Part shown: one piece after another, positions 1-26,449 of the stretch | Numbering within the stretch: the first letter of the stretch is position 1 | How the letters are laid out: each line of letters starts with the position of its first letter | Assembly: GCA_030606485.1 (NCBI GenBank) | Contig: JAUWGH010000003.1 | Location: 420,001 to 452,000 of the forward strand | DNA length: 32,000 nucleotides | Source of the DNA: Promethearchaeota archaeon | GTDB taxonomy: Archaea; Asgardarchaeota; Lokiarchaeia; Sigyniarchaeales; SOKP01 | Reading direction: 5' to 3' | Made by a program: the position numbers and the translations under genes | Notes under the pieces: generated by a model | The model's database searches: none | What the model saw: only the letters and a program-made list of their open reading frames with translations | Told to the model about the DNA's origin: nothing

Positions 1-1019
1 CAAATGTGATTCAGACATTACAGTGGATGATGCATCCTTTAAAATCAGCAGTTATTGGAAAAGCTTCTTTAGTAATATGTGTTCCTATTTTCCATCAATA
101 TGGACATTGGGCTGTACATGCCTCCATTTCTTGGGGTATTCGCATATTTTTAATGGATCCAAGAGATATTGATAAAATGATTGAAATAATAAAAAAAAAT
201 CGTCCTTTTATGATCATTGGCGTTCCGACCCATTTTATGTTATTTCTTACTAAAGATATTCAGAGATTGCCAGTTTTTTTCTTTTCTGCTGCTGCTGCTC
301 TTCCTGAAGAGGTTGCTAAAAAGTTTGAGAAGAAAATTGGAGTTCCAATGGGTGAAGGCTATGGTGCGACAGAAACAACGGGGGGTACTCACTTAAATCT
401 TACAGCACTTTCAAAAGTTACAGGATTTGTTTCAAAAGTTAAAAGATCTATTGGAATACCAGTTCCTGATACGGAAGTTAAAATTGTAAACCTTGAGACT
501 GGTGAGGAAGTCCCAATTGGGGAAACCGGTGAAATATGGATTCGTGGTCCGCAAGTAATGAAAGGTTATTGGCCAACGCCAGGTAAAGGTTTAACCGAAG
601 ATGGGTGGCTTGCTATGGGTGATATTGGAAAAATGGATGAAGATGGCTTTTTCTACATCGTTGACCGTATCAAAGATATGATTAATGTATCAGGGATGAA
701 AGTTTATTCGAGGGTAGTGGACGATGTTTTATATGAATATCCAGGTGTCAGTGAGGTAGGTGTTATTGGAATTCCAGATCCAGACCGCCCAGGAAGTGAA
801 AGGGTAAAAGCTTTCATAACATTAAAACCAGAGTTCGAAGGTAAAGTTACTTCTGAAGAAATAATTGAATACTGTAAAGAGAAGCTTCCACCATACGCTA
901 TACCGAAGTCTGTTGAGTTTAAGAGAGATCTGCCTAAGACCCTTGCTATGAAAATCTTAAAGAGAAAACTAAGAGAAGAAGAAATCGATAAGATGAAAGC
1001 GAGAGGAGAAATTAAATAA
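1..1019 (+). CDS. Long-chain acyl-CoA synthetase (AMP-binding/ANL family), 5'-truncated by the window edge
   Basis: Reading frame is open from the window start. ANL motifs: GEGYGATE, GEIWIRGPQVMKGYW, GDIGKMDEDGFFYIVDRIKDMINVSG, LPKT...K. Confidence 0.93.
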   Translation, partial: NVIQTLQWMMHPLKSAVIGKASLVICVPIFHQYGHWAVHASISWGIRIFLMDPRDIDKMIEIIKKNRPFMIIGVPTHFMLFLTKDIQRLPVFFFSAAAALPEEVAKKFEKKIGVPMGEGYGATETTGGTHLNLTALSKVTGFVSKVKRSIGIPVPDTEVKIVNLETGEEVPIGETGEIWIRGPQVMKGYWPTPGKGLTEDGWLAMGDIGKMDEDGFFYIVDRIKDMINVSGMKVYSRVVDDVLYEYPGVSEVGVIGIPDPDRPGSERVKAFITLKPEFEGKVTSEEIIEYCKEKLPPYAIPKSVEFKRDLPKTLAMKILKRKLREEEIDKMKARGEIK

Positions 1020-1164
1020 TAATCACGAATTAATTTTCCAATCGTAGTTATCAATTTAAAAATTTCCTTTATTTTTTTATATAATTTCTAGTAATGATAA
1101 AAATGATCATAATCTTCAATGTATATGAATCCTGCATCACTTTCAGTTGATGGAAATGAAATAA

Positions 1165-1458
1165 ATGACCGTATATAGGATCAAGGTAATAGTAAAATTC
1201 TTTCTCCAATTTAGAGACTTTTTAAAAAAAAGTAAAATAGAAATTGAACTTAAAGAAGGAGCAGATATTTTCCAGGTTTTGGAGTCCATTTGTAATTTAT
1301 ATAATTTACGAGAGAAAATATTTAACGAGAAAAACGAACTTAGACAATGGATTAGGATATTGAAAAATGGAAGACAAATCAAATTTTTAAATGGCATTAG
1401 AACTAAACTTAGGCATGGAGATGTAATAGCACTGTTCCCACCTACAACTGGTGGATAA
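1165..1458 (+). CDS. MoaD/ThiS/SAMP ubiquitin-like (beta-grasp) protein
   Basis: 97 aa. ILKNGRQI...TKLRHGDVIALFPPTTGG with a free C-terminal di-glycine. Confidence 0.9.
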   Translation: MTVYRIKVIVKFFLQFRDFLKKSKIEIELKEGADIFQVLESICNLYNLREKIFNEKNELRQWIRILKNGRQIKFLNGIRTKLRHGDVIALFPPTTGG

Positions 1459-1628
1459 TATTACTTAGGTAGTTTTATAGATAATATTTTTTTTTATTTT
1501 TTATATAAAAACAAAATTATTTAATAGAATCAAATCTAAAATAAATTTAATAAAATCAAAAAGCTAAGAAATTTAAAGTAAATAAATATTCAAAACTTTT
1601 ACTAAAAAAAATAAAGAGAGTGAATGTT

Positions 1629-2096
1629 ATGGCAAAATTTGCTACAGATGAGTGGGCTGAACAATATGCTAAAGCCCTTAATGAAAACGAGGAATATAGG
1701 GCAGCGGCTGGGCCCAAAGGTTTTCCACCCGACGGGTGGGAAGGAGATTATATTTTTGTAATTGAGCCAAGCGGAAATTTAGATCATAAAATAGAAATGT
1801 GGATAGGACTATACCACGGCGATTGCACGGGAACTAAAATCTTAAAAAAGGAAGATAAATATCAACTTATAAAATCAGGAGAGAAGGCTCCAGAAGGTGT
1901 CATTGGAGTTGAATTTATCTATTCCGCAACCTATGATAACTGGGAAAAGATATTAAAGAAAGAATTGGATGCTGTTAAAGCGTTGTTGAAAGGACAAGCG
2001 AAACTCCAAGGCGATATGGCAAAAGTATTAAAAGCTACAAAAGCTGCAAAAGAGATGGTAAATACTTCAGCTAATATTGACACGCAATATTGGTAA
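1629..2096 (+). CDS. SCP2 sterol-carrier/lipid-binding domain protein
   Basis: F.TDEWAEQYAKALN, WEGDYIFVIE, LDAVKALLKGQAKLQGDMAKVL match the SCP2 pattern. ATG at 1629 follows AGAGAG (the track starts at GTG 1620). Confidence 0.85.
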   Translation: MAKFATDEWAEQYAKALNENEEYRAAAGPKGFPPDGWEGDYIFVIEPSGNLDHKIEMWIGLYHGDCTGTKILKKEDKYQLIKSGEKAPEGVIGVEFIYSATYDNWEKILKKELDAVKALLKGQAKLQGDMAKVLKATKAAKEMVNTSANIDTQYW

Positions 2097-2263
2097 ATTA
2101 TAAAAATTTTTTTTTATTTTATATTTTCTTAATTCTTGTTTTGTATATTATTTTTTAATAATAAATATTATTGCAGAATTAAGATTAGCCAAATTAAACC
2201 AAACTTTCTTTTTCTAAAATAAAAAAAAGTATTAAGAAATGAAAAAGTGAATGAAATTTTTTT

Positions 2264-2680
2264 TTACCTTATTTTATCTAAAACTAGAATTTTCGGAAGT
2301 TTTAATAATATCCCGAGATGACGCTTCCCATCACTTCCCTTTTCAAATCGTAATTTTCTATATCCAAACTCATTTTTTTTAGTCAACATATGTAAGGTTG
2401 AATTTTCGCCGCTAATAAAAGACAATATATCTTCTGGAGCTGCTTTTAATACCAAATCATAATCATCTAATTTATCTCTTGAGAAAGTAAAAATTCCATT
2501 TTCTGCAACCAAATTGGTCCAAAAGTAGTAATCCTTTTCAATTTGAAAGCCAATATTTATTCTCGCCTTAAATTTATTAAGTTTCTTTAAATTTTTAGGA
2601 TTTTTTCGTTTATCTTCTATTACACTATCAAATACATTTTTTAAAGTTGAAAATAAAGTTTCCTTTTGAGATTCTTCCAT
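2264..2680 (-). CDS. Divergent SCP2-like domain protein
   Basis: 138 aa. The pattern INIGFQI...TNLVAENG...DYDLVLKAAPEDILSFISGENSTLHML...LRFE resembles the SCP2 fold. Confidence 0.6.
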   Translation of the reverse strand: MEESQKETLFSTLKNVFDSVIEDKRKNPKNLKKLNKFKARINIGFQIEKDYYFWTNLVAENGIFTFSRDKLDDYDLVLKAAPEDILSFISGENSTLHMLTKKNEFGYRKLRFEKGSDGKRHLGILLKLPKILVLDKIR

Positions 2681-2953
2681 AATTATTTACCCAAATAAGA
2701 CATTTTTAAGTTGTTTTATTTTAATTTTCTTTTGAATAAAAATTTAAATTTACATCTATATAAAAATTGTTTTAATTTATCTCCGATTTTCCGAAATGAA
2801 TAATAAATTCTTTAATTGAATATCCTTGATTTACTTGAACTTGAATTTATTTTTTTACTGTTGCCACTTCGGTTATGAATTCAACATTTTTCTTTACTTT
2901 ACGTTCCCAATATTGCGGCTTATAGGCAGTAAATTTCTGACTGGAATTAAAAT

Positions 2954-3709
2954 TCAAAAAATTTTTGGAAAGATTTTTTTAGTATTTTCCAAAATCTGAG
3001 ATTTTAAGTCATTAACAGGAATTTTCTTAATTTTAGATATTTGATTTAACACACCTTGAATCATTGAGGGAGCTCCAGTTTGATTATGATATCTGACGGG
3101 TCCATCGCTTTCTAATAAAAGATTCGAAGAATCACAAAGTTCTACGGTTTTTTTAACAGGAGGTGAATATTCGATTGCTGGGGTTACTGAAAAAAAGTAA
3201 CCTCTATCCAAACCAGCTTTTACTAGATCTTGTGGTCCAGAATACCAATGAATGTTAATATTAGGTAGATTATAAGTGGGTAATATTTCGAATACTTCCT
3301 TTTCTGCTCCTTTCACATGCAAGTTCACTGGTAAATTAAACTTTTGAGCTAGTCCCAGCATAGTTTTAAATATTTTTTCCTGCAGAGGCCATAATGTATT
3401 ATCTTTAACAAAATAGTGATCTATTCCAATTTCTCCGATTGCACATAATTCATCGCTATTGATAGTGATAAAGTCTATAATCTCATCTAATTCCTCATCA
3501 ATATTTTTATTTTCTTGAACTTCTTGCGGATGAATTCCAAGAGCCGGGTAAACAGCCTTAAATCTCTCACTTAGATCCATAATCCTTTTTTGACTTACAG
3601 CGCTCATAGCGACGGCAATTATTTTCTCAACTCCGATCTGTTGGGCTTCTGAGATAATTTCTTCTGGAACTAAGTATAAGTTTAAATGACAATGGACATC
3701 AATTAACAT
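2954..3709 (-). CDS. tatD: TatD-family metal-dependent nuclease/hydrolase
   Basis: IDVHCHL, LGIHP, AIGEIGID, LPVNLH, IHWYSG, LLLESDGP. The start overlaps the upstream stop (TAATG). Confidence 0.93.
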   Translation of the reverse strand: MLIDVHCHLNLYLVPEEIISEAQQIGVEKIIAVAMSAVSQKRIMDLSERFKAVYPALGIHPQEVQENKNIDEELDEIIDFITINSDELCAIGEIGIDHYFVKDNTLWPLQEKIFKTMLGLAQKFNLPVNLHVKGAEKEVFEILPTYNLPNINIHWYSGPQDLVKAGLDRGYFFSVTPAIEYSPPVKKTVELCDSSNLLLESDGPVRYHNQTGAPSMIQGVLNQISKIKKIPVNDLKSQILENTKKIFPKIF

Positions 3710-4878
3710 TAGTAATCTCTATACCTCCTTACTGCGTCAAACATTGCCACAATATTTTCTGGAGGGACTTCTGCAGTAATATTATGAATATTTGTGGCTA
3801 TATAGCCCCCACCGGGTTTAAAACATTCTATATTATATTTTACTTCTTCAGTTATTTCTTTTGGTGTTCCAAACGGAAGAGTTTTTTGAGTATTACAAAG
3901 ACCGCCCCAAAAAGTAATAATATCTCCGAATCTCTTTTTCAGACTACAAGGTTCCATATCATAGGCTGAGATTTGAACGGGGTTATAGATATCATAACCT
4001 ATATCTGCAAAATGGGGCAAAAATAAGGAAGTCGATCCGCAACAATGATAATTAATCTTCACATCAGCGAGTTCATGAATCTTCTCGGATAACCTTTTTT
4101 CTATTGGTTTGATAATAGTTTCATATATTTTTATATTCATTATTGGTCCTGCTTGTTCTCCTAAGTCACCATTTATACACACGACATCCAGAAATTCTCC
4201 GACTTCATTTAAATATGTTATATTATAATCAATCCAATGTTTTAACAAACCCTCCATCGCAGCAATTATTAATTCTGGCTTTGTTAGTAAATATCTTAAT
4301 GCTTTTATGAAACCAAACAAGAAAGTCGTATATTCATAAATACATCCAGTAACAGGAGTTACTAAAGCAAAGTTGGTTTCTTCATAAAGTTTTTTAGCGT
4401 ATTCCTTCAATCCCTTAAAAGGTGTTTTATCTTTACCATCAGGCCATTTGTAATTTTCTATCTCATGCACTGTTTTAAAATCTTCAAAAGGATGAATCAC
4501 CGGATCATAATATAAAATATCTTCAATATCTTTATCTGCATCATTCCCCCAAAAAACTCCGAATTGATCGTATATCCCAATATATTTTCCTTCTTGCTGG
4601 GGTTCAAAACTAACATCCAGTAGACTTCCTAAAGGGCGAATATATCGAGTATCAACTTCAAATCGTTCTAATAATTCCTCACATGGATATGCAATTTGTT
4701 GTATAAAATCAGAATATTGAATATTTTTGTCTTCAATTTCAAGGAAATCGATCAATCTTTTATATGCTTTAATGTGGATACTAGATTGATTTCCACCTAA
4801 ATCTATTGGAATTTTATCGGGTTCCCTATGATCGAGTGTCGTATTTAATCTTTCCCTAGAATTCATATGATTATTCAT
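3709..4878 (-). CDS. Uroporphyrinogen decarboxylase-fold protein (URO-D/MtaA-CmuA-like, not clearly HemE)
   Basis: SRERL..TLDHREPD.IP.DLGG, NGDLG, YHCCG, NPVQ, LKKRFG..ITFWGG, FGTP.EI.EEV, GGGYI...HNI...VPPENIVAMFDA. Confidence 0.85.
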   Translation of the reverse strand: MNNHMNSRERLNTTLDHREPDKIPIDLGGNQSSIHIKAYKRLIDFLEIEDKNIQYSDFIQQIAYPCEELLERFEVDTRYIRPLGSLLDVSFEPQQEGKYIGIYDQFGVFWGNDADKDIEDILYYDPVIHPFEDFKTVHEIENYKWPDGKDKTPFKGLKEYAKKLYEETNFALVTPVTGCIYEYTTFLFGFIKALRYLLTKPELIIAAMEGLLKHWIDYNITYLNEVGEFLDVVCINGDLGEQAGPIMNIKIYETIIKPIEKRLSEKIHELADVKINYHCCGSTSLFLPHFADIGYDIYNPVQISAYDMEPCSLKKRFGDIITFWGGLCNTQKTLPFGTPKEITEEVKYNIECFKPGGGYIATNIHNITAEVPPENIVAMFDAVRRYRDY

Positions 4879-13874: not shown

Positions 13875-14026
13875 TAAGCTATTTGTTTGAAATTAAACAT
13901 TTAAATATAAGTTAGTATCGTTAATTAAATTAACTAACATAGATCATTTAATTAAATCTTTATAAAAAAAAAATATAGAAATTAATTTTTAAAAAGAAAT
14001 TGAAAACAATATGGAGTGAAAGGATT

Positions 14027-15469
14027 ATGACAGAATCTACAAAAATGAGGTATTCTGAAAAAATTACTAATAAGAAAATTATTTTATTTACATTAAGTGG
14101 ACCAATCAGCGGACTTTTGTTTGGAATGTGGGGGAATATTCAGTTTTTTGCGGCATCGGTGCTTTTAATACCACAAGCTGTAATTACTGTGATTTACCTT
14201 ATTTACTCAATAGTTGATAGCATCAATGATCCATTATTAGGTTATCTTAGTGATCGATCCAAAAGATTTACAGCAAAATTTGGAAAGCGTTTTCCATGGA
14301 TTATGATTGGGGCTATTATAAGTCCGATTTTACTCATTTTATGTTTCATTCAAGTCGCTCAAATTAATGTTGATGAATCCGGTCAAGTGCTAAATCCTGA
14401 AGCAGTTTTAATAGCCTCTATATGGTTATGCGTTATAATGGTTATTTACGAAACATTTCGCACATTACATGAAATAAGCCATACATCTTTGTTCCCGGAT
14501 TTATTCCGAGAAGAGAACCAACGAAGGAAAGTTAGTGGAATTGGAGGGATTGTAGGTGGAATAACCTCGATTTTATCTGCTATTTTGATTCCATTATTTA
14601 TAGCAAGTCTAGGAGGGGCAACTAGCCTAACTGCTTATTTGTTTACTACAATAATAATCATTATTGTTGTTTATTTATTGATTTTCCCCTATAATTTAGG
14701 TGTTCGTGAAACGGATAAGATGAAAGCATTTCGAGTAAAATTAGATGATTCAGGAAAAGGTACTTCTCCAGTGAAAGAAGTAGTGATTCGTATATTTAGA
14801 GATAAAAATTGGATGGCTATAGTAATTACGAATTTCTGCTGGGCTATAGCTGGAGCTTGCATGTTGTACGGTTTAAACTTTTTTATCTTACATAATTTAG
14901 GATTGGGCATAGAATCTACCATTTTACCAGGACTATTTCATATTATCGTAAGCATTATTTCAGCACCCATTTGGATGAAAGTAGCGAAAAAGATAGGTGT
15001 TAAAAAAACTTACTTAGTGAGTTTGATTTTAAATGTTATTGGTTTCCTTGCATTTTATTTTGTAACTGATATTATTGGAGTTATTATAGTGTTAGCTTAT
15101 GTAGGCGTACCTACTAGTGCAAATTATGGTGTGATTATTTTTCTTGCAAAGGCTGAGGGAATTGATAACGCTGCTGTAAATTCAGGAAAACGTGAAGAAG
15201 GGAGTTACAATGGTATATTGCGAGTTTTTTCTGCATTTTCATATGCTTCTCAAACTCTAATTTTTGCATTAGTAGCAGGTATCACAGGATATAATCCAGT
15301 TCTTGAAGCTAACCAAACTCCTTTTGCCAAATGGGGGTTAAATCTCCAAATGTCACTAATCCCAATGGTTATTATCCTTATTGGCACGATTATTTTTGCA
15401 CTAATGTATAAAATAAGAAAGGAAGATGCAGAAGCAAATAAAGAAAAATTGAAAGAATTAGGGCTCTAA
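14027..15469 (+). CDS. MFS transporter, glycoside-pentoside-hexuronide (MelB-like) family
   Basis: DSINDPLLGYLSDR...FGKRFPW, R..G.Y.G motif, about 12 hydrophobic segments. ATG 14027 follows GGAGTG (the track starts at TTG 14000). Confidence 0.9.
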   Translation: MTESTKMRYSEKITNKKIILFTLSGPISGLLFGMWGNIQFFAASVLLIPQAVITVIYLIYSIVDSINDPLLGYLSDRSKRFTAKFGKRFPWIMIGAIISPILLILCFIQVAQINVDESGQVLNPEAVLIASIWLCVIMVIYETFRTLHEISHTSLFPDLFREENQRRKVSGIGGIVGGITSILSAILIPLFIASLGGATSLTAYLFTTIIIIIVVYLLIFPYNLGVRETDKMKAFRVKLDDSGKGTSPVKEVVIRIFRDKNWMAIVITNFCWAIAGACMLYGLNFFILHNLGLGIESTILPGLFHIIVSIISAPIWMKVAKKIGVKKTYLVSLILNVIGFLAFYFVTDIIGVIIVLAYVGVPTSANYGVIIFLAKAEGIDNAAVNSGKREEGSYNGILRVFSAFSYASQTLIFALVAGITGYNPVLEANQTPFAKWGLNLQMSLIPMVIILIGTIIFALMYKIRKEDAEANKEKLKELGL

Positions 15470-15493
15470 ACCATCCTAAACCAAGATTTTAAA

Positions 15494-15509
15494 TTTTTTT
15501 TTTTTTTTT
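15494..15509 (+). terminator. T16 tract between the convergent MFS and rpe genes (archaeal-type terminator candidate)
   Basis: Run of 16 T starting about 25 nt after the MFS stop. Confidence 0.45.
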
Positions 15510-15525
15510 CAATATATATAAAAAT

Positions 15526-16158
15526 TTACCTTTTCTTTAATTCCTTTATTACCTTATTAGGGTTTTTAGTATTAATTATTGCACTAGCAGAAATTAAAAT
15601 ATCAGCTTCTGATAATTTTTTTGAACTTTCTAAATTTATCCCCCCATCTACCCTTATTTCTATTTGGTATTTCTCCTTATATTTTGCAATCTTTTTTAAT
15701 CGATCTACGGTGGATTCTATAAATTTTTGGCCAGAAAACCCAGGACTTACTCCTAAAATCAAAATTGTATCAATTATCGGGAGATATTTTTCTAATTTGT
15801 GAATCTCTGTGTCGGGATTGATCACCAACCCCACCTTTTTATTATGACTCTTTACTTTCATAATTATCTCTTGAATATTTTCTTTAATTTCAATATGGAA
15901 CAAGAAAACATCGATATAATCAATTATTTTATCAATATATTCGAGTGGATTCTCAACCATTAGATGTGCTTCTATAGGCAAATCAAACTCAGATTTGATT
16001 TTTTTTAAAATTTCTAGGTTAAGTTTTAAATTCGGAACAAATTTTCCATCCATTATGTCTATATGGATAAAATCGAGTCCTTTTAAATTTTTCAAAATAT
16101 CTATAGTAAAATCATCACTTGCGTGAATCGAAACGGCTACTTTCAATTTATTTCTCAA
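15526..16158 (-). CDS. rpe: Ribulose-phosphate 3-epimerase
   Basis: IHIDIMDGKFVPN, EAHLMVENP, GLVINPDT, PGFSGQKF, VDGGIN. Confidence 0.93.
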   Translation of the reverse strand: MRNKLKVAVSIHASDDFTIDILKNLKGLDFIHIDIMDGKFVPNLKLNLEILKKIKSEFDLPIEAHLMVENPLEYIDKIIDYIDVFLFHIEIKENIQEIIMKVKSHNKKVGLVINPDTEIHKLEKYLPIIDTILILGVSPGFSGQKFIESTVDRLKKIAKYKEKYQIEIRVDGGINLESSKKLSEADILISASAIINTKNPNKVIKELKKR

Positions 16159-16230
16159 TTTAGTATAATGTGAAATTAAATTTAATTAATAATATATTAA
16201 TTTTTTTAAGATATTAAGGTAAATAATTAA

Positions 16231-18912
16231 ATGAAGAAAAAAATGACAGAAAAATCATATGGTTCAGGTTATTTTGGCGAATGGATCGAAGATGAATTTG
16301 GTTTGCCTGCTTATCGATATACTTGTGATCAAATAAATGATCCTAAGGCAATTACTCCTATGAATGAAGTCTGGCGTTCTAAAACTGAACATCTTCATCA
16401 AGTAGGTAATGATCGATTAGTGGCTGTAGCGTCAAACTATGGTTATATACAAGTAAGACAAGATGAAGGATGTCCAAAATATCTTAATGAATACGATCCT
16501 GAACATGGTCATTATGCAGGAGGGTTCGGCTATCTTACTGATGGGAAGAATCTTTTGAGTACATATTACCCTGGAAATGGAGAATCATTTAATAGAATTT
16601 TTGGATTGGGTTATATTCGAAAAACCGTGACAGGAAATGGATATGCTGCCGATTATATTGTTTTTGCGCCATTTGGTAATGATCCAATATTGATCTCCCA
16701 AGTTACAATAACAAATAATCTTGATGTCCCAACTGATCTACGCTGGATTGAATTTTGGGGTTGTCATATGTATCAATTTTCATTAAAGGCATATACAACA
16801 ACCATTTCGAAAAAAAGTAAAAAGCATCCAAGAGAGATTCGTCGAGAATTCAGTGAGCAGTTTAAACACAGATTTACAATAATAAACGATGGTGCGGGAC
16901 TTCAAGAAGAAAGATTTATTAATAATTTAAACAAAGCTAATAAGGCTCCTTACCTCGAACCAGTAGATGAAGATATTAATCCACCTATGACTTTTCTTGT
17001 TTCTTTAGATAACAAGCCAGATGGTATGAGTACTAATAGCTCGGAATTTTTTGGTAAAGGTGGAGTCGAATCACCAGATGGACTTAAAGAGAATTTAACT
17101 TCAAAAATTAATACTTCTGGTACTGAAAGCGCTATGTTTCTTGAACATAAGATACATTTAGAACCTGGTGCGAGACAAACTTTATATTTTGCTTATGGGT
17201 ACCTCCCAGAAGGATTCAAACTCAATTCTCTTTTAAACAAATATAAAAGTAATTTATCCCAATTATGGGCAAAATCATGTGAAAGCTGGAAAAAAAATAG
17301 AATAGAATTAATTATCCCTGATGAACCATGGGTAGATCGTGAACTCATGTGGCATAATTACTATTTACGAGGTGCTATGACATACGATAGTTTTTTTCAA
17401 GAACATATACTTTCTCAAGGGCACGTTTATCAATATATTATTGGATTTCAAGGTGCTGCTCGTGATCCCCTACAACATGCACTACCTTTCATCTATAGCA
17501 ATTCAGAAATTGTTAAAAATGTTATCAGGTACACCTTAAAAACGGTACGTAGGAGTGGTAAAATACCCTATGGAATCTGTGGTTGTGGAAAAATAATGCC
17601 CGATCTTTTTAAACCTAGTGATCTAGAAATGTGGCTACTATGGTTGGTTAGTGAATATATTCTTGCGACACGGGATATAAATTTTCTTGAGGAAGAAATT
17701 CCTACATATCCTATTTATGGCCCTAAAGCAGATAAAGTTAAAGTACGAGATTTACTGGTACGATGTTACAAACATTTTGTTGATAAAACAGGAACTGGTC
17801 ATTATGGGCTTCAACGTTTATCTAATGGTGATTGGAACGATGCTGTTGTTGTTGGTCACATCCCCCCTGAAAAACATAGAGAGATTCAAAAACATGGCGA
17901 AAGTGTATTAAATGCTGCCATGGCAGTTTTCACTCTTAGAATATATGCTGAAATGCTGAATTTTATAGGTGACAAAGAGATGGCAGAAAAAGCACTTAAG
18001 TATTCTGATGCTCAACGTGAGGCAGTTCGCTCTCAATGGGCTGGAAAATGGTTTAAACGAGCATGGCTCACAGAAGAAATTGGATGGATTGGGGAAGATC
18101 AAATGTGGCTGGAACCTCAACCTTGGGCTATTATTGGAGGAGCCATAAACCAAGAACGGAGAGAGCTTTTAGTTCATTCAATTGATGAATTAGTACGACA
18201 ACCTTCAAAGATTGGTGCTAGACTCCATAGTAAAGGGCTTGAAGGAGTTGGAGATAAAGGACAGGGAGTAAATGGTGGAGTATGGGCGTCGATAAATGGT
18301 ACATTGATATGGGCTTTATCATTAGTGGATGGAGATATGGCATGGGATGAATGGAAAAAAAATACACTTGCCATTCATGCAGAAAGCTACCCTGAAGTGT
18401 GGTATGGAATATGGAGTGGCCCTGATACATATAATTCAAATTTATCTAAGTATCCGGGTCAAACTGTTTTTGAAGAGGCTCTAATCACTAAAGATTCAAA
18501 AAAAGATGAGGAGGAAATTGTTTGGAGTGTAGGATTGGGTTGGACTGATTTCCCAGTATTTAATTTACATCCTCATGCTTGGCCATTATATAGTGTAACT
18601 AAATTGATTGGTATACAATTTACCAAGGAAGGTTTAGAATTAACACCGACCTTACCTAAGGACGAATATAAATTCTCATCACCACTTTTAGGATTCGAGA
18701 AATCAAAAGAAGGATACTCAGGATGGTACTCACCTAATGTTGCTGGAACTTGGAGAATTAGCTTGAAACTTAATAAAGATGAATTAAAGATTTATAATAC
18801 CATAAAGATTAATAGAAAAGAGGAGAAAATTGTTATTGAGGGGAATAGAATTGTATGGAGTGGTAAGAGTACTCCAGATAAACCATTACGATGGATACTT
18901 AAGAAGGGGTAA
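16231..18912 (+). CDS. Divergent GH94-like glycoside phosphorylase / (alpha/alpha)6 glycosidase
   Basis: RDPLQH, GDWND catalytic motif, ESV, W.GKWFKRA, QPWAII and NGG occur in the order expected for GH94-like catalytic domains. 893 aa. Confidence 0.72.
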   Translation: MKKKMTEKSYGSGYFGEWIEDEFGLPAYRYTCDQINDPKAITPMNEVWRSKTEHLHQVGNDRLVAVASNYGYIQVRQDEGCPKYLNEYDPEHGHYAGGFGYLTDGKNLLSTYYPGNGESFNRIFGLGYIRKTVTGNGYAADYIVFAPFGNDPILISQVTITNNLDVPTDLRWIEFWGCHMYQFSLKAYTTTISKKSKKHPREIRREFSEQFKHRFTIINDGAGLQEERFINNLNKANKAPYLEPVDEDINPPMTFLVSLDNKPDGMSTNSSEFFGKGGVESPDGLKENLTSKINTSGTESAMFLEHKIHLEPGARQTLYFAYGYLPEGFKLNSLLNKYKSNLSQLWAKSCESWKKNRIELIIPDEPWVDRELMWHNYYLRGAMTYDSFFQEHILSQGHVYQYIIGFQGAARDPLQHALPFIYSNSEIVKNVIRYTLKTVRRSGKIPYGICGCGKIMPDLFKPSDLEMWLLWLVSEYILATRDINFLEEEIPTYPIYGPKADKVKVRDLLVRCYKHFVDKTGTGHYGLQRLSNGDWNDAVVVGHIPPEKHREIQKHGESVLNAAMAVFTLRIYAEMLNFIGDKEMAEKALKYSDAQREAVRSQWAGKWFKRAWLTEEIGWIGEDQMWLEPQPWAIIGGAINQERRELLVHSIDELVRQPSKIGARLHSKGLEGVGDKGQGVNGGVWASINGTLIWALSLVDGDMAWDEWKKNTLAIHAESYPEVWYGIWSGPDTYNSNLSKYPGQTVFEEALITKDSKKDEEEIVWSVGLGWTDFPVFNLHPHAWPLYSVTKLIGIQFTKEGLELTPTLPKDEYKFSSPLLGFEKSKEGYSGWYSPNVAGTWRISLKLNKDELKIYNTIKINRKEEKIVIEGNRIVWSGKSTPDKPLRWILKKG

Positions 18913-19205
18913 AGAAATTAAAAAATATTAAATCCTTGAAAACTGAATTTTATCAACACAGGATTTGTTACAAGAAGTAAGGGTAAATGAATATGATTTT
19001 TATTAAATTTTTAATAAATAAAGTATAATAATTTTTTCAATCCAGACAATGGAAATATGAAATTAAAAGTGATAATCTTTCAAAGATAGACAATGTTTTA
19101 TTCATTCGAGTATAAATATAAATATATTAAAAATTTTAGATTGAAAGAAGTTCATTTTTAAAAATTAGATATAAAAAAAATTACTTTTTTACGATAAAAA
19201 GTATC

Positions 19206-20807
19206 ATGCAAGTATGTTTAACAGCAGATGAAACAAATATTTTGAGTTCTAAAATTGGATTTTTCATTCCTGGTTTTATTCCCTCCGTCCCAAGGCGCCA
19301 GATTCCTTTGCCACTACGATATCCCGTTGAAAAGTTTCTTTTTAAAAAAATGGATACTAAGCCGCAGTACAATGTAGTCCAAGCTCCTTTAGGATTGAGG
19401 AGAGTTGAAGATGCTTTATTAAATCATGGAATTTCCTGTAAAGTCATCTCTCCTCAAAAAATCGGTAAGCTTTCAGAAGAAGTAGATGTTTTTGGTGTGT
19501 CATCCATGGATCCACTCGGATTAGGTCCTGTGAGTGCTACATTCCGTGGATTATTAAATTTTGATAACAATTTCGAAGAGAATAAACCTTTTACTGAATT
19601 AAAATTTTTAGAATTAATTAAAAAAATTAAACAATATGAGAAACCCATAGTTGTTGGGGGATCTGGAGCGGGACAATTCGAATTGATGCCAGAAAAGCAA
19701 GCGTCATTGGGAATTGATTATGTTATCACGGGTGAAGCTGAACTCATTGCACCTGTGGTTTTTAAAAGGATTATTAATCAGAAGCATGTGCCTAAAATTA
19801 TTCGGGCGAGAATATTACGAAACCCTGAATCTCAAGTTCCTCTCCTCTCCAAACCCACTTATCAAGGCATTATTGAAATTTCTCGAGGTTGCGATAGACA
19901 TTGTAAATTCTGTGATCCAGCTATCCGAAAATTTCATTGGTTTTCAAAAAATCGGATTGTTATAGAGGCGAAAAGAACTGCGCTAGAGAATAATGGTTAC
20001 ATTCGGTTATTAGGCGAGGATATTTTACGTTATGGAAATAAAATTCATGATTGGATTCCTTGCGGGAAATTAATTGAATTAATTAGAGATATTAAAAAAA
20101 TTAAAACTGTTTCTAAAATCGGTCTCTCTCATGCTTGTTTATCAAGTGCATTAGCAAATCCCGAGCAAATTGAAATGTTGCGTGAAGAGTTAGATCTTTC
20201 TCCCGATAATTTTACCTCTCTACAGGTGGGTATTGAAACTGGGTCAGTTCAGAAAATAAAGGAATATATGCCGCTAAAAGCTGCCCCCTTCGAGCCTGAT
20301 GATTGGCATGAGGTGGTCTTAGATGGCTGGAAATTATTATGTAAAAATTATATATATCCAGCAGGAACAATTATAATTGGGTTGGATGATTCTGAAGAAG
20401 ATTTAGAAGATACTATTCATTTGATACAAAAAGTGAGTAGATATCCTGGTATGTTCTTTCCCCTGTTTTTTATGTCGCTGGGACGCTTAAAAAACAAAAA
20501 GATTTCATATCGAACGAACTGGTTTTCCATGCCCAATAAAATGCGAGAACTCTATTTAATTAGTCTAAAGCAACTTTTACGACAAACAGAACATATAGAC
20601 GGACTACTTTTTGGAAGAGAAATACATCACAGGATTCTTAATCAAATTTTAATCGTCTATTTTCAAGGAATATGTGAAATTTTAGAAGATCAAATTAAAA
20701 CTAATGAAATCCGTAATTTGGCTTCCTCGGTAAAGGTTGAATTTAGGAAAACCTTATATTATTTAAGAGATAAAATCCAATCCTCCATCTTATCTTATGG
20801 GTTTTAA
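19206..20807 (+). CDS. Cobalamin-binding-domain radical SAM protein, Grs/Gms-like family
   Basis: EISRGCDRHCKFC (CxxxCxxC) and GIETGS. N-terminal LTADET...APLGLRRVEDALL...MDPLGLGP...IVVGGSGA. Confidence 0.82.
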   Translation: MQVCLTADETNILSSKIGFFIPGFIPSVPRRQIPLPLRYPVEKFLFKKMDTKPQYNVVQAPLGLRRVEDALLNHGISCKVISPQKIGKLSEEVDVFGVSSMDPLGLGPVSATFRGLLNFDNNFEENKPFTELKFLELIKKIKQYEKPIVVGGSGAGQFELMPEKQASLGIDYVITGEAELIAPVVFKRIINQKHVPKIIRARILRNPESQVPLLSKPTYQGIIEISRGCDRHCKFCDPAIRKFHWFSKNRIVIEAKRTALENNGYIRLLGEDILRYGNKIHDWIPCGKLIELIRDIKKIKTVSKIGLSHACLSSALANPEQIEMLREELDLSPDNFTSLQVGIETGSVQKIKEYMPLKAAPFEPDDWHEVVLDGWKLLCKNYIYPAGTIIIGLDDSEEDLEDTIHLIQKVSRYPGMFFPLFFMSLGRLKNKKISYRTNWFSMPNKMRELYLISLKQLLRQTEHIDGLLFGREIHHRILNQILIVYFQGICEILEDQIKTNEIRNLASSVKVEFRKTLYYLRDKIQSSILSYGF

Positions 20808-20950
20808 TGGAATTCTTTTCCCCTCACATATTTTTTAATTATTATTTTATGTTTTCATTTCCAGAAAATTTAATTATATATATTTATTTATTAAATTATC
20901 TGTTCTAGCTAATAGAATTCTTATAAAAATACAACAAGATTGATTAATTT

Positions 20951-22384
20951 ATGAAAATCTTTTTAATTATTTTCGATACTTTAAGAAAAGACCATACGGG
21001 AAAAACTTATGGTAATTCTTGGATAAAAACTCCAAACTTTGATAATTTTGCCAAGGATTCAATTGTCTTTGATAAGGCATATCCAGAATCTTTAGCTACG
21101 ATTCAAGTGCGTAGAGCAATACATACTGGAATACGAACTTTTCCTTTTAATCATAAAAAGCCGGCTCTTCGGACAGATGACATAGTTAAAATCCTAGGAT
21201 GGGACCCCATACCTCCACACCAGACTCATTTAGCAGAATATTTAAAAAAAGATCTATTTATTACTTCATTTATAACGAGTACTTACCATCAATTTAAACC
21301 TAATATGAATTTTCACCTTGGATTTGATCAATGGAATTGGATTAGAGGTCATGAGAATGATAAATTTAGAGCGCGGTTAAGAGAAGGCAATTTTGAACTG
21401 AATCGAAAAGTAAAAGAACATATTTGCAAACATCTTGGAGGCAGGATGCGACAAAGTTCTATATTAAAAAAATATTTTAGTAATGTGCAGGATAGGAAAG
21501 ACAAGAATGATTATTTTCCTGCACAAACTTTTAAACAAGCTATTGAATTTATTAGAGATACAAAAGATTCAAAAAAAGTCCTATGTGTTATCGATGAGTT
21601 TGATCCCCACGAGCCTTGGGACCCTCCTCAGAAATATCTTAACTTATACGTAGATAAGAATTATAATGGAAAAAAAGTAATCCAACCTGCATATAGTGCA
21701 AATTTAAATTATATTACCGATGACGAATTGAAATATATGAGAGCTTGCTATGCGGGTGAGGTTTCTATGTGTGATTATTGGTTTGGATATTTTATTAAAG
21801 AATTAAAAAATATGGAATTGTATGAAGATTCTTTAATTATTTTAATTAGCGATCACGGGCATAGTATAGGTGAGCATAACGCAACAGGTAAAATTCCGAT
21901 GTTTTTATATCCTGAACTTGTAGATATCCCTTTTATGATCAAACCTCCTGGTGGCTTAATTGGTCCAAAAAGAATTAAGAAGTCTTACGTTTATAATCAT
22001 GATATTTTACCAACAATTTTCGGATTTTTAGGGAAAGATAAGCTGGATGCTTTTGAGGGTATTGATCTTTCATTATTTCATAAGGAAAATGATCATGAAA
22101 TTGAAAATCGAGATTATATAACATGCGGATTTAGTGTATATACACTATATAAAGATGATCACTATGCATTAATCACATCTAATGATAAATCTGACCAAAA
22201 ACTATTTGATTTATCAAAAGACCCAGAATGGAATGACAATATAGCAAAAGATAATTCTGATATTTGCAACGAACTTTTTGAAATAATTAATAAAGACGCA
22301 AAAGGTGAACTTTTTTTAGAAATAAAATTAAGATTAGAGGACTTAAAAGATTGGTATGGGCAAAAAAAAATTTCTGACAATTAA
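20951..22384 (+). CDS. Alkaline-phosphatase/sulfatase superfamily hydrolase with Thr at the nucleophile position
   Basis: FDTLRKDH, TIQVRRAIHTG (aligns to CxPxRxxxxTG), FDPHEPWDPP, SDHG, HDILPTI, LFDL..DP. Confidence 0.87.
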   Translation: MKIFLIIFDTLRKDHTGKTYGNSWIKTPNFDNFAKDSIVFDKAYPESLATIQVRRAIHTGIRTFPFNHKKPALRTDDIVKILGWDPIPPHQTHLAEYLKKDLFITSFITSTYHQFKPNMNFHLGFDQWNWIRGHENDKFRARLREGNFELNRKVKEHICKHLGGRMRQSSILKKYFSNVQDRKDKNDYFPAQTFKQAIEFIRDTKDSKKVLCVIDEFDPHEPWDPPQKYLNLYVDKNYNGKKVIQPAYSANLNYITDDELKYMRACYAGEVSMCDYWFGYFIKELKNMELYEDSLIILISDHGHSIGEHNATGKIPMFLYPELVDIPFMIKPPGGLIGPKRIKKSYVYNHDILPTIFGFLGKDKLDAFEGIDLSLFHKENDHEIENRDYITCGFSVYTLYKDDHYALITSNDKSDQKLFDLSKDPEWNDNIAKDNSDICNELFEIINKDAKGELFLEIKLRLEDLKDWYGQKKISDN

Positions 22385-22397
22385 CCTTTACATAATT

Positions 22398-23612
22398 TCA
22401 TTGAAGATATGTTCCAAGTTTAAAAAATTTTTTCAGGCCCCATCTATAGGATCTTATCCCTTGTGTTATATCTATTAATTTGTTTCTCATTAATTTTAAC
22501 ATTAGATGTGTGGGATAATAATTAAAAAAGGTATTTATTGGATTAAAAATAAGCCATCTCAACTTCATTGCATATTTTAACTCCGAATAAATATTCTTAC
22601 TTAATAGACGTAAATAGAGGATGGCAGAATTTTTTAAATTTTTTAAATCTTTTAAATTTTTTAAAATTGCTAAAGACGCATACTCAGCGGTTTTTTGAGT
22701 GTAATAAATTCCTTCTCCCCAAAACGGGTCAGCAATACCAGCTGCATCACCTATTAAGATTATTTTATTTTTATATATAGGGGTAACGTGAAAATTTCCA
22801 TAAGGAATGGGATGTCCTGATACTCTAGAGACGACATCGGGATTTATTTTCAAAGCAGTTATGAATCTATTTAATGTTCTTTTGAAAAGACCTTTATTTT
22901 TTCTATTGAGGCCCCCTACACCCACAATTACCTGATCTTTGTTTGGAAATAACCAATTATATCCATATCTTAAAAATCCAAATGAAATCATAGGATATTT
23001 AAAAAGGCCTTTTTCTAAATTTTTTCTGTCAATAAAACATTCAAGCCCTGTAGCTAAATTATAATTCCATTTGTCTTTACTGATTATTCCATTACGTATA
23101 AATTCTTGCTTTACTATACTATTAGCCCCATCAGCACCGATGATTAATTTTGTTTTAAATTTATCACCTTTCGACAGATTAATTTCACAAGTGTCTAAAT
23201 TTACTTTCTTAACTTCATTACCTTCAATTACATCTACACCTGCTTCCTTTGCTTTATTCAAGAGGAAATTATCATACACTCGCCTATCCACTAAGTAAAA
23301 AGGAAACTTAGAAATATTTATTGACATTATTCTTTTTACTTTATAATTAATTTCAAAACGATTTGTGTGGTAATTTATAATTTTTTTATCCAGAAGAGTT
23401 TCCGTCGTTTCTTTATATAACCTATTTAACAGGTCAAGTGTTTTAAAAGTAATTATGCCTCCACATAGCTTTTGTCGTGGAAAAATATCCTTATCAATTA
23501 TTTGTACATTAAGTCCGAGCTTACTCAATAAATAACCCGCAGTAGATCCACCTGGACCTCCACCAATTATACTAACATCATAATCAAAATTTTGTTGCGA
23601 CATTAAACTCAA
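22398..23612 (-). CDS. Geranylgeranyl reductase-family FAD oxidoreductase
   Basis: IIGGGPGGS, FPRQKLCGG, IIGADG, GYNWLFP (YxWxFP), LIGDAAG..DPFWGEGIYY. Confidence 0.88.
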   Translation of the reverse strand: MSLMSQQNFDYDVSIIGGGPGGSTAGYLLSKLGLNVQIIDKDIFPRQKLCGGIITFKTLDLLNRLYKETTETLLDKKIINYHTNRFEINYKVKRIMSINISKFPFYLVDRRVYDNFLLNKAKEAGVDVIEGNEVKKVNLDTCEINLSKGDKFKTKLIIGADGANSIVKQEFIRNGIISKDKWNYNLATGLECFIDRKNLEKGLFKYPMISFGFLRYGYNWLFPNKDQVIVGVGGLNRKNKGLFKRTLNRFITALKINPDVVSRVSGHPIPYGNFHVTPIYKNKIILIGDAAGIADPFWGEGIYYTQKTAEYASLAILKNLKDLKNLKNSAILYLRLLSKNIYSELKYAMKLRWLIFNPINTFFNYYPTHLMLKLMRNKLIDITQGIRSYRWGLKKFFKLGTYLQ

Positions 23613-23790
23613 CTATTTTTAAGATACGACTTTTATTCCTTAATCTGGAAAGAATTAATATGATCATTAATTAACCAGTTTATCTATATATAATTTTATT
23701 TTTATTAATTCTTACTAATTTGACTTTTATTTGTTTTCATTCAAAATAATTTGGGATTACTTGATTCTTTTAAAAAAAAGTTAAATGAAT

Positions 23791-26449
23791 TTAATTTCTA
23801 ATTAAATCAAATAAAGATCGAATTCTTATGGAATCCCGAATTTCTTGTTTTGAAAGCTTTTTCTCATGATTAATAGGTTTAATGTTACATAACGTAATTA
23901 TTCTTGATTCATTTGATTCCAGAGAGAAAAAATTATCAGAAGCTATGAAATCCACTAAATCAGAATCTATGAATACATAAAAAGCAATGTTTTTGTTTTG
24001 AATTTTTAATTTTGCATTACTTTCACTTAAAGAAACATCTTCAAACTTATATGAAAGCTCAGGATCGAGCAGATTTAACTTTTTTGGAGCATCAAACAAT
24101 CGAAATCCATGAGATATTATCTTTTCTCCATTTTGTATATGTTTTAATTCGAAAAAAACCACATTATTTTGTCTCTTTATCTCGTCTCTATTTATTTCGC
24201 TCACAGTAATAGTTCCTACTTTTAATGAAGTGCATGGTAAAATTTCTGAATTAAATGAACCATGCTTTAGTATCATTACAGTAGAATTCATAATTTTCCA
24301 ATTTAATATAAACTCACAAGAAGTTCTTAAATCATTAGTTATCCAGAACTCGACAGATTCTTTATCTTCTTTAACGCTAGGAAAAACTGGTTGATAAAAC
24401 CTTTTACCAAAATAATGAAGAGCTTTCCATCGAATAAAGTAATCTATCGAGCTCCACGACGCTACAGGCCAGCAATCATTTAATTGCCAATAGAGAGATC
24501 CCATGCAATGAAATTCGTTACGATTGCGACGCCAATGTTCTACTCCATATTCGATTGCCTCTGCTTGGGTGATTTGAGATAAAATGATTTGATTTTCAAA
24601 CTTTTTAGGGATTATAAACCGTTTCTTCATATACTTTAGGATTTTCTTATTTCCGGCTGCATTTTTCTGATGATTTTCCATAATTGGCGAGAATAAATCA
24701 AATTGGTCAGATGGGCAAAAAGAAGATATAGTCTTCATTGATGGAAATGATTCAAATCCAAATTCTGACATAAATCTTGAATTAAATTTACGATAAGCAG
24801 AAAAACGTTTTCCTGCATGCCATACCATCCAATAATGTGAATCACCTCTATCAGGAGAATTTGGTTTTAATAAATCTCTACCCCCCTCTCTAAAAATTCC
24901 TCCATTGGAAGGTGAACTAGGCCAATAATTATGCTGAGGATCATACTCATTAATCAATTCCAGCAGAAGTTTTTCAAATAATTCTATATAATCTTTCTTA
25001 TATTGACGTTGTTTGTTTGAATCTGATTTAAAAATATTCGATAAATATAACTCCATCAACCATTCATTTTCATTATTTCCACACCAAAAAGCCAAACTGG
25101 CATGATTACGTAGACGTTTGATATTTTGTATTGCTTCTTCTTTAAAGTTATCAAGAAATTCGGAAGTATAGGGATAAAGAGCACATGCAAATGGAAAATC
25201 CTGCCAGACCAATAGTCCCAATTCATCACAAAGATCATAAAAAAGATCATCCTCATAGATCCCACCACCCCAAACACGTATCATGTTCATATTTGCCATT
25301 TTTGCACTTTTCAAATTAGCTGAGTAAAGCCCTAATCGTTTTCCCCGGGGAATGAAACTGTCGACTGGAATCCAATTTGCACCCTTTGCAAATATAGGCA
25401 CTCCATTAAGTGAAAAATAAAAGGTCTCCCCCCATCTATCTTCATTTCGAACAAGACGGATTTCACGGATTCCAATTTTGTGCGTTTGTGAATCTATAAT
25501 AACATTATTTTTTTTTATAAATACTTGGATTCCATAAAGATGAGAGTTTCCAAGCTCATAGATCCACCATAACTGGGGATTTTTAATATTTATCTCAAGA
25601 GAAACTGATTTATTCTTAATCTCAACTTCTTGAGATATTTCCTCCCCATCAGGAGATATTAAAATTACATTCGCAAAATATCCATTAACTTCAGTATTTA
25701 CACCTTGGTTAGGATCCTTTAAAAAAATGCTTGTATCCAATTCTATTTGAATCTGTAAATTAACTAATTCAACATTAATATCCTCGATATCTTTTGGATT
25801 TGCAATTTTTAGTGGATCCTTATTGTATGTAAAATTTTGTATAATATAAACGGAATCGATCCTAATTTTATCATATCCAATTAACTCAATAGGTTGCCAT
25901 ATTCCCATATCTGGCAGCTTTGGTCCCCAATCCCAACCAAAAGAATATTGTGCTTTTCTAAGAAATGGAACTCCAGGAATAGCATCAGGAACCTCTTTTA
26001 ATCGATGACCATATTTTTCAATTTCTTCACGAGCTCTCTGTGTTGGACTATGAATAATAACCTTTATTTTGTTTCCAGAGTTTTTTATATAATTTTTCAC
26101 ATCAAATTCATAACTACGGAACATATTATTCGTTGTTCCAATGATATTTATCATTAAGTTCAATTTCCGAAATTGTATCAATCCCATTAAATCGGAGAAT
26201 AATCTTTTCATGCTTTAATATATCATCAAGTACATCGAAAGTAGTTTCATACTGCCAATCTGATTCATATACCCAAGACATTTCATGCTCATGCATCCCA
26301 TAAAATGGATCTACAATAACATTATTTTCAAATAAAGCTTCATACACCGAACCTGGTACTAAAGCAGGGATATTGATCGAACTTGCTTCATTTTTTAGAT
26401 TCCATTCACCATTTAAAGAAATTTTTCCTATTTTTTTCATCGTTGTCAT
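23791..26449 (-). pseudogene. GH2 beta-mannosidase split by a one-base frameshift near 26146-26149 (real pseudogene, recoded gene or assembly error)
   Basis: N-part (26449-26126: LNGEW, VPGSV, DPFYG, LRFNGIDT) continues in another frame (GTTNNMFRSYEFDV, RKAQYSFGWDWGP, KGANWIP, RVWGGG, WCGNNE, SEFGFES, WQLNDCWP). Removing one base gives about 885 aa. Confidence 0.88.

Follow-up and report, generated by a model that had tools for sequence, protein, structure and literature searches.

A divergent Grs-family radical SAM protein, a probable tailor of tetraether lipids, in a Promethearchaeota archaeon

The gene and its product

The DNA considered here, called the window throughout, is a 32,000-nucleotide stretch from a Promethearchaeota archaeon (GenBank assembly GCA_030606485.1, contig JAUWGH010000003.1, positions 420,001 to 452,000; G000:C8:420001-452000 in our own numbering). 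The host genome amounts to 3.75 Mb in 13 contigs, has about 29-31% G+C, and is estimated to be 100% complete. The nearest homologues of the protein treated here bear the names Helarchaeota, Lokiarchaeota, or Promethearchaeota, which places the host among the Asgard archaea, in the Loki class. The element of interest is a single gene whose product, P0001, is one of the radical S-adenosylmethionine (SAM) proteins of the Grs family, to which GrsA and GrsB, the ring synthases of glycerol dialkyl glycerol tetraether (GDGT) lipids, belong. The listing of open reading frames and the translation of the window give one ATG-started frame that encodes a protein of 533 amino acids (aa), and orthologues starting at the same position back the choice of start codon. 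The gene and the recognizable parts of its product are as follows.

19206..20807, forward strand: Grs-family radical SAM gene encoding P0001 (533 aa), from the reading frame listing and the matches to GrsA and GrsB
19206..19820, forward strand: Rossmann-like ("B12-like") domain at the N terminus, aa 1 to about 205, from the AlphaFold model and motifs
19665..19676, forward strand: GAGQ, aa 154-157, in which Gly156 replaces the Trp of the family motif GAWQ, from the alignment
19872..20495, forward strand: radical SAM core (partial TIM barrel), from aa 223 to about aa 430, on the basis of PF04055 and the beta/alpha repeats of the model
19890..19913, forward strand: CX3CX2C (C229, C233, C236), predicted site of the SAM-cleaving [4Fe-4S] cluster, invariant in 86/86 family sequences
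20379..20402, forward strand: GLDDSEED, aa 392-399, in which a one-residue deletion turns the family motif GLPEE into GL-DD, from the alignment
20535..20795, forward strand: long C-terminal helices, aa 444-530 (model helices 444-459, 473-499, and 505-530)

The first-pass annotation, which was made from the sequence alone, had quoted six strings from this protein, and the translation contains them all: LTADET (aa 5-10), APLGLRRVEDALL (aa 60-72), SMDPLGLGPVS (aa 100-110), FTELKFLELI (aa 130-139), IVVGGSGAGQ (aa 148-157), and CDRHCKFC (aa 229-236; nucleotides 19890-19913). Is the gene itself real? It is not an assembly artefact: independent contigs from the sequencing of other studies (X2 and X4 in study P2, X9 in P4) extend across the gene and both of its junctions, with 1-38 differences. 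No RNA run is listed as carrying it, which is no evidence either way on its expression.

Family databases say little about P0001. Pfam recognizes the radical SAM domain PF04055 at aa 223-407 (38 bits, cut-off 29.5), and the B12-binding domain PF02310 gives a weak, partial match of 20 bits, below the cut-off of 32.1. NCBIfam has no Grs model, and all of its matches to P0001 fall far below their cut-offs. The best of them, TIGR04013 (the MJ_1487 family), scores 60 bits where 251 are required and was rejected; the true member of that family in the host is another protein, L021, with 364 bits. A phmmer search against the sequences of the PDB gave no match, and a profile search started from P0001 returned weak matches to MiaB, RimO, and MgmA and nothing else there.

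Membership of the Grs family

The family assignment comes from direct comparison with the enzymes of Sulfolobus acidocaldarius. By BLASTP, P0001 is 30% identical to GrsA over 447 residues (E 1e-51) and 30% identical to GrsB over 425 residues (E 2e-54), which bears out the first-pass annotation in taking it for a divergent protein related to the GDGT ring synthases. In the S. acidocaldarius genome (G467), P0001 matches two loci only, at 0.20 Mb and 1.354 Mb. An exact look-up identifies their products as AAY79657.1/Q4JC22 and AAY80898.1/Q4J8I0, respectively, and from the order of the genes we infer that the former is Saci_0240 (GrsB; P0317 in our set) and the latter Saci_1585 (GrsA; P0323/P0324). 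A Cgm-type match, found with the host protein L013 as the query, lies 197 kb beyond the GrsA locus, the distance to be expected for Saci_1785 from a spacing of 200 genes. Zeng et al. reportedly listed Saci_1785 as a third Grs candidate, and it is now called Cgm. In the reverse direction, GrsA finds P0001 alone in the host genome (E 5.8e-49), the next match being at 9e-4; the two proteins are therefore reciprocal best matches.

The alignment points the same way. P0001, GrsA, and GrsB have the motifs LTxD, APxGLRxxE, DPxGxxP, GGxGAxQ, and RGCxRxCxFC in common and in this order, so that the motif order given in the first-pass annotation does belong to the authentic S. acidocaldarius enzymes. With GrsA, the shared series can be written as LTxD, APxGLRxxE, GGxxxxQ, RGCxRxCxFC, GIETGS, and MPxKxAP, and GrsB has the same architecture and motifs. 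Some 40 family-invariant residues are retained in P0001 and its orthologues. GrsA and GrsB also resemble P0001 in what Pfam makes of them, namely PF04055 only with no B12 match.

How well is the family set off from other radical SAM proteins? It is compact: among 1.84 billion representative proteins, a search found 401 with E <= 1e-3, of which 99 also pass E <= 1e-30. P0001 is its only member in the host genome, and some nine further B12-type radical SAM proteins encoded there stand at a much greater distance. In trees, the Grs family, P0001 included, is monophyletic with respect to the host paralogues L010, L014, L017, L021, L012, and L013 (support 98-99). Among near-complete Thermoproteota genomes, 373 of 401 carry the family. 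Many Thermoproteota matches, of the Bathyarchaeia type (in G449, G656, G546, and G623, for example), contain exactly one in-frame stop, which is probably the alignment overrunning the end of the gene. P0001 is, then, a new and divergent member of a described family and not a new kind of system, and its original rating as the best candidate for new biology in the window was set too high.

Architecture, and comparison with other lipid-tailoring enzymes

An AlphaFold model of P0001, built on 20 orthologues (predicted local distance difference test [pLDDT] 86, predicted template modelling score 0.86), consists of a Rossmann-like N-terminal domain, the radical SAM barrel, and, at the C terminus, a set of long helices. 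The N-terminal domain, with its alternating strands and helices (pLDDT mostly 77-96), carries the motifs LTxD, APxGLRxxE, MDPxGxGP, and VGGxGAxQ. Within the barrel, the retained family-invariant residues include E224, R227, G228, D272, Y276, H309, G342, E344, K358, P361, and W367. Since C229, C233, and C236 are the only cysteines conserved across the family, an auxiliary iron-sulfur cluster is not expected in P0001; the sole further conserved cysteine, C311, is conserved within the orthologue clade only. This arrangement agrees with the published models of Grs proteins, which likewise have a Rossmann-like N-terminal domain, a TIM barrel, and C-terminal helices (PMC13459092, PMC11186832), with one CX3CX2C motif and no auxiliary cluster. 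In models of GrsA, the C-terminal helices are regarded as probable membrane or substrate contacts (PMC11186832, PMC13459092). Grs enzymes as a group are peripheral proteins with one [4Fe-4S] cluster, and the cobalamin-type character of their Rossmann domain is cryptic.

The closest solved folds are those of the cobalamin radical SAM enzymes MgmA (9ccb), TsrM (6wtf), OxsB, CysS, and TokK, together with MiaB (7mjz) and RimO. All of them give template modelling (TM) scores of about 0.5, and MgmA, TsrM, and MiaB, the best structural neighbours, are only 13-16% identical to P0001 in sequence; with MgmA and TsrM, the whole model aligns over 476-495 columns. Clusters of predicted archaeal structures from Thermoproteota and Nitrososphaerota match the model at TM 0.83-0.86.

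Two other groups of radical SAM enzymes tailor GDGTs. Could P0001 be a bridge synthase like Gms or a methylase like Gmm and Cgm? What speaks for either is general: P0001 is a radical SAM protein in a tetraether-making archaeon, and such enzymes are known to act on these lipids, Gms itself acting on GDGT-0. The first-pass annotation had counted Gms among the cobalamin-domain relatives of Grs, and this does not hold. Gms belongs with the SPASM/Twitch enzymes: it has a COG4001 domain and two auxiliary clusters, and it lacks a domain of the cobalamin type (PMC11214058, PMC11186832). Its homology to P0001 is confined to the radical SAM core, and P0001 has a single conserved cluster motif, gives no SPASM match in Pfam or NCBIfam, and shows no conserved extra cysteine clusters in the alignment of its orthologues. 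A bridge-forming role modelled on Gms accordingly loses its basis.

As for the methylases, work by Garcia et al. in 2024 and 2025 is said to have described the methylases Gmm, Cgm, and Pgm and the desaturase Ted as B12 radical SAM enzymes of lipid tailoring. Like P0001, they combine a radical SAM domain with a cobalamin-type domain, and they act on GDGT chains. They differ in having a strong PF02310 domain (79.7 bits in Cgm), which P0001, GrsA, and GrsB are without, and P0001 does not match the Cgm locus of S. acidocaldarius at E <= 1e-5, whereas the host protein L013 is 31% identical. These enzymes form a separate, MoeK5-like family (bioRxiv 10.1101/2025.10.20.683597), to which P0001 does not belong. 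That other family is represented in the host by three genes of its own, which are candidate GDGT methylase or desaturase genes judging from their sequences:

G000:C10:754467-757461: tandem pair of B12 radical SAM genes of the Gmm/Cgm/Ted type, L016-L013
G000:C9:30653-32200: third B12 radical SAM gene of the Gmm/Cgm/Ted type, L012

All told, a Gms-like or Gmm/Cgm-like function for P0001 is extremely improbable.

Tetraether synthesis in the host and the proposed reaction

A role in tetraether tailoring, as the first-pass annotation had it, turns on the presence of the tetraether synthase Tes, and the host has two Tes genes, with 478.5 and 451 bits for NF045702 against a cut-off of 450:

G000:C1:434961-436730: Tes, L019, above the NF045702 cut-off
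G000:C10:234420-236108: Tes, L020, above the NF045702 cut-off

Both paralogues lie just above the NCBIfam cut-off, and at least two Tes matches are usual in the host's Asgard family. True orthologues of P0001 (45-63% identity) occur in 9 of 400 Asgard species genomes, and Tes is present in all nine of the orthologue-bearing genomes. At one locus the association is physical as well: on a Promethearchaeota contig (L025), a Tes gene lies 43 nucleotides upstream of the orthologue, on the same strand.

What would such an enzyme do? By analogy with GrsA and GrsB, its cluster would cleave SAM to give a 5'-deoxyadenosyl radical, which would abstract hydrogen from the saturated biphytanyl chains of the tetraethers made by the two Tes enzymes of the host. 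Two such abstractions would lead to a new C-C bond within the chain, most probably closing a cyclopentane ring, and cobalamin would perhaps hold the first radical. This scheme, including the part given to cobalamin, is itself a proposal for Grs (PMC13459092). The GDGT substrate, the ring closure, and the use of cobalamin are all carried over to P0001 from its characterized relatives, and cyclization or another radical change of tetraether chains would be the most likely function. Put more specifically, P0001 is probably, though by no great measure, a radical SAM enzyme of the Grs family that modifies the biphytanyl chains of tetraethers produced by Tes, most probably by making a cyclopentane ring.

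Might the substrate instead be some other isoprenoid, such as archaeol, a polyprenol, or the side chain of a quinone? A geranylgeranyl-reductase-like gene adjoins the orthologue in one genome (L032 in G149), in divergent orientation, and Tes is linked to the gene at one orthologue locus only. That single link is a tight, operon-like one, however, and it is to Tes; the occurrence of Tes in every orthologue-bearing genome and the action of the characterized Grs members on GDGTs also argue for tetraethers. Another isoprenoid as the substrate is thus unlikely.

Place in the family and two altered motifs

Where in the Grs family does P0001 belong? In an IQ-TREE analysis of 90 sequences, which takes in neither TK0167 of Thermococcus kodakarensis nor Cmaq_1853 of Caldivirga and so does not place the A' and B' clades, GrsA and its Acidianus orthologue fall in a clade of 6 members (support 99) and GrsB in one of 7 (support 100). 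P0001 lies outside both. It belongs to an 11-member clade of Loki- and Helarchaeota sequences (support 100) on a stem of 0.75 substitutions per site, and this clade is nested in a 19-member one that also takes in sequences from Njordarchaeota and from unnamed metagenomic sources (support 99). The tree does not resolve how the major Grs clades branch from one another. The place first proposed for P0001, inside the Grs family as opposed to the B12-type radical SAM proteins of the host, stands.

The P0001 type is rare and patchy. Across 185,579 species genomes, orthologues were found in only 8 metagenome-assembled genomes, including Helarchaeota Hel_GB_A and Meg19_1012_Bin_504, and in no cultured organism. 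An orthologue that is 46% identical sits on a contig labelled with a bacterial name, Candidatus Deferrimicrobium sp. (L068, DATKTP010000170.1), which is probably a mis-binned archaeal contig.

Two motifs set the orthologue clade apart. Of 67 family members outside it, 99% have the Trp of GAWQ, against none of the 11 within it, and the Pro and Glu of GLPEE, which are 96-97% conserved elsewhere in the family, including GrsA and GrsB, are replaced by the Asp-Asp of GL-DD. The near-invariance of both motifs is a property of this alignment, and neither has been published as a defining feature of Grs. The clade also has inserts of its own, one of them at aa 121-126. Its sisters in the 19-member clade, Grs-like proteins from Njordarchaeota and metagenomes (P0047, P0048, and P0150-P0154; 34-40% identical to P0001), are without these inserts and keep the GAWQ Trp in 8/8 sequences, the GLPEE Glu in 8/8, and the Pro in 6/8. 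Apart from GAWQ and GLPEE, the conserved Grs positions are all retained in the P0001 clade. Because the clade is well conserved internally (mean column identity 59%), it is under constraint, though possibly a changed one. P0001 belongs to a rare third deep clade, and the position of its ring, or its chemistry, may differ from that of GrsA, which makes C-7 rings, and of GrsB (C-3). GrsB differs in another respect: it depends on the products of GrsA (PMC13459092), whereas P0001 has no other member of the family beside it in the host.

Evidence against ring synthesis, and a possible new function

Several observations weigh against P0001 being a tetraether ring synthase of the familiar kind. (i) It branches outside both characterized clades, and in it and its 10 orthologues two of the best-conserved Grs motifs, GAWQ and GLPEE, are changed. 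(ii) In seven of the nine orthologue-bearing genomes there is also an "ordinary" Grs-like paralogue, or two of them, which suggests that the role of the P0001 type is non-redundant and possibly different. (iii) Of 134 genomes in the host's Asgard family, 128 have Tes and 7 have any Grs-family gene; since most of the genomes with Tes do without a Grs-family gene, the P0001-type gene is dispensable in that family. (iv) Adjacency to Tes is seen in 1 of about 13 orthologue contexts. (v) Cobalamin binding by P0001 is a prediction.

Do these points mean that P0001 is a Grs-family enzyme with a new function, acting on tetraether or diether chains to make something other than the C-7 and C-3 cyclopentane rings? 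A ring at another position, a six-membered ring, and a double bond are the candidates. The long stem and the separate clade would fit such a change, as would the loss of the GAWQ Trp and the GLPEE Pro-Glu in proteins that are otherwise conserved among themselves, and so would the co-occurrence with ordinary paralogues, one of which adjoins the P0001 orthologue in G151. There is a precedent, too, in the neighbouring methylase family, where Ted, a 31%-identical homologue, is a desaturase (bioRxiv 10.1101/2025.10.20.683597). On the other side, all the other family-invariant residues are retained, the P0001 type is the sole family member in G000 and G165, as a stand-alone ring synthase would be, and changes in motifs do not by themselves predict chemistry. 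A new function of this sort is possible and rather doubtful. The same tentative grade applies to the fuller proposal that the Loki/Hel clade is a new functional type, whose altered motifs would bring about a lipid modification that has as yet been assigned to no gene, whether a six-membered ring, a ring at a new position, or some other rearrangement of the biphytanyl chains by radical chemistry.

Gene neighbourhoods vary between the P0001 orthologues. In G151 (L030, G151:C238, positions 111-4580), one strand carries the orthologue, a polytopic membrane protein of 344 aa, and an ordinary Grs-like gene; the membrane protein has weak ceramidase and CDP-alcohol-type matches. At the Helarchaeota-type loci, two conserved genes (about 250 and 240 aa, no Pfam family) lie downstream of the orthologue on the same strand, and they may be partners of the enzymes of this clade:

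L024:3577-4825: downstream gene pair
L033:11534-13022: downstream gene pair
L035:2134-3591: downstream gene pair
L036:11721-13188: downstream gene pair

The gene contexts of more distant homologues, in Bathyarchaeota and Nitrososphaeria, were uninformative.

A single-gene presence/absence polymorphism at the host locus

The P0001 gene is present in the host and missing from the same site in close relatives, with the limits of the difference falling just outside the gene:

18906..20925, no strand: segment of 2,020 bp absent from three genomes of the same genus, comprising the gene with 300 bp upstream and 118 bp downstream

In these three genomes (G147, contig C29; G145, contig C141; and G146, contig C356), the flanks are collinear with those of the host at 91-97% nucleotide identity, and about 30 bp takes the place of the segment. 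Was the gene gained by one lineage or lost by the others? Over 2.3 kb of flank, pairwise identities group the host with G146 (94.7%) and G145 with G147 (92.1%). Given this pairing, one gain in the host is more parsimonious than two identical losses, a polarity that rests on this one flanking region and not on a genome tree, and the P0001 gene is probably a recent single-gene acquisition in this lineage. The segment itself shows no compositional anomaly (GC 0.314 against 0.308 for the window), repeats, or signs of a mobile element.

A recently acquired gene could, of course, be a passenger, unexpressed or non-functional in its host, and the lack of the gene in close relatives would suit that explanation. 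Its frame is intact, however, and all of its catalytic motifs are retained. The contigs mentioned above that bridge both junctions come from cold-seep and subsurface populations, and with so few differences between them and the host, the gene-bearing arrangement is real in those populations. The same arrangement is found in the metagenomes of several studies, so the gene is maintained in nature, and a mere passenger is very unlikely.

Grs content varies within the genus as a whole: the P0001 type occurs in the host, a different Grs-like gene in G146 and G148, and no Grs-family gene in G145 or G147. In view of this variation, lipid-tailoring genes look like accessory traits in the genus.

What of the genes on either side? 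Positions 14000-26211 of the window form a carbohydrate-use cluster, with an MFS_2 sugar transporter, a ribulose-phosphate 3-epimerase, a protein like glycoside hydrolase family 94 (GH94; 893 aa, unmatched in NCBIfam), a sulfatase, and a GH2 beta-mannosidase-like protein. Between the sulfatase and the GH2 gene lies one more gene:

22398..23612, reverse strand: geranylgeranyl reductase (GGR)-family reductase, TIGR02032, 181 bits, above the cut-off

A lipid "trio" of radical SAM protein, sulfatase, and GGR was considered and rejected, the sulfatase, GGR, and GH2 genes being contiguous in G147, which has no radical SAM gene there. The GGR-family reductase predates the radical SAM insertion. As the P0001 gene was most probably gained into a block that already existed, the sulfatase and the geranylgeranyl reductase are not its partners.

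Implications for Asgard membranes

How many rings archaeal tetraethers contain is the basis of palaeotemperature proxies and of membrane adaptation, and the lipids of Asgard archaea bear on ideas about the origin of eukaryotic membranes. In the host, whose genome is complete and of the Loki type, P0001 is the one candidate from the Grs family, and since the closest relatives of this genome are without the gene, host and relatives make up a natural gain/loss pair in which one can ask what an Asgard membrane gains from the enzyme. If cyclopentane rings are all that P0001 makes, a family already described has one more ordinary member. If its clade makes a different product, the known chemistry of Grs would be widened, and, should the clade prove a new functional type, the transfer of a single gene would let Asgard archaea of the sediment switch a lipid trait on or off. 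P0001 is, in any case, a useful candidate for work on the lipids of these organisms.

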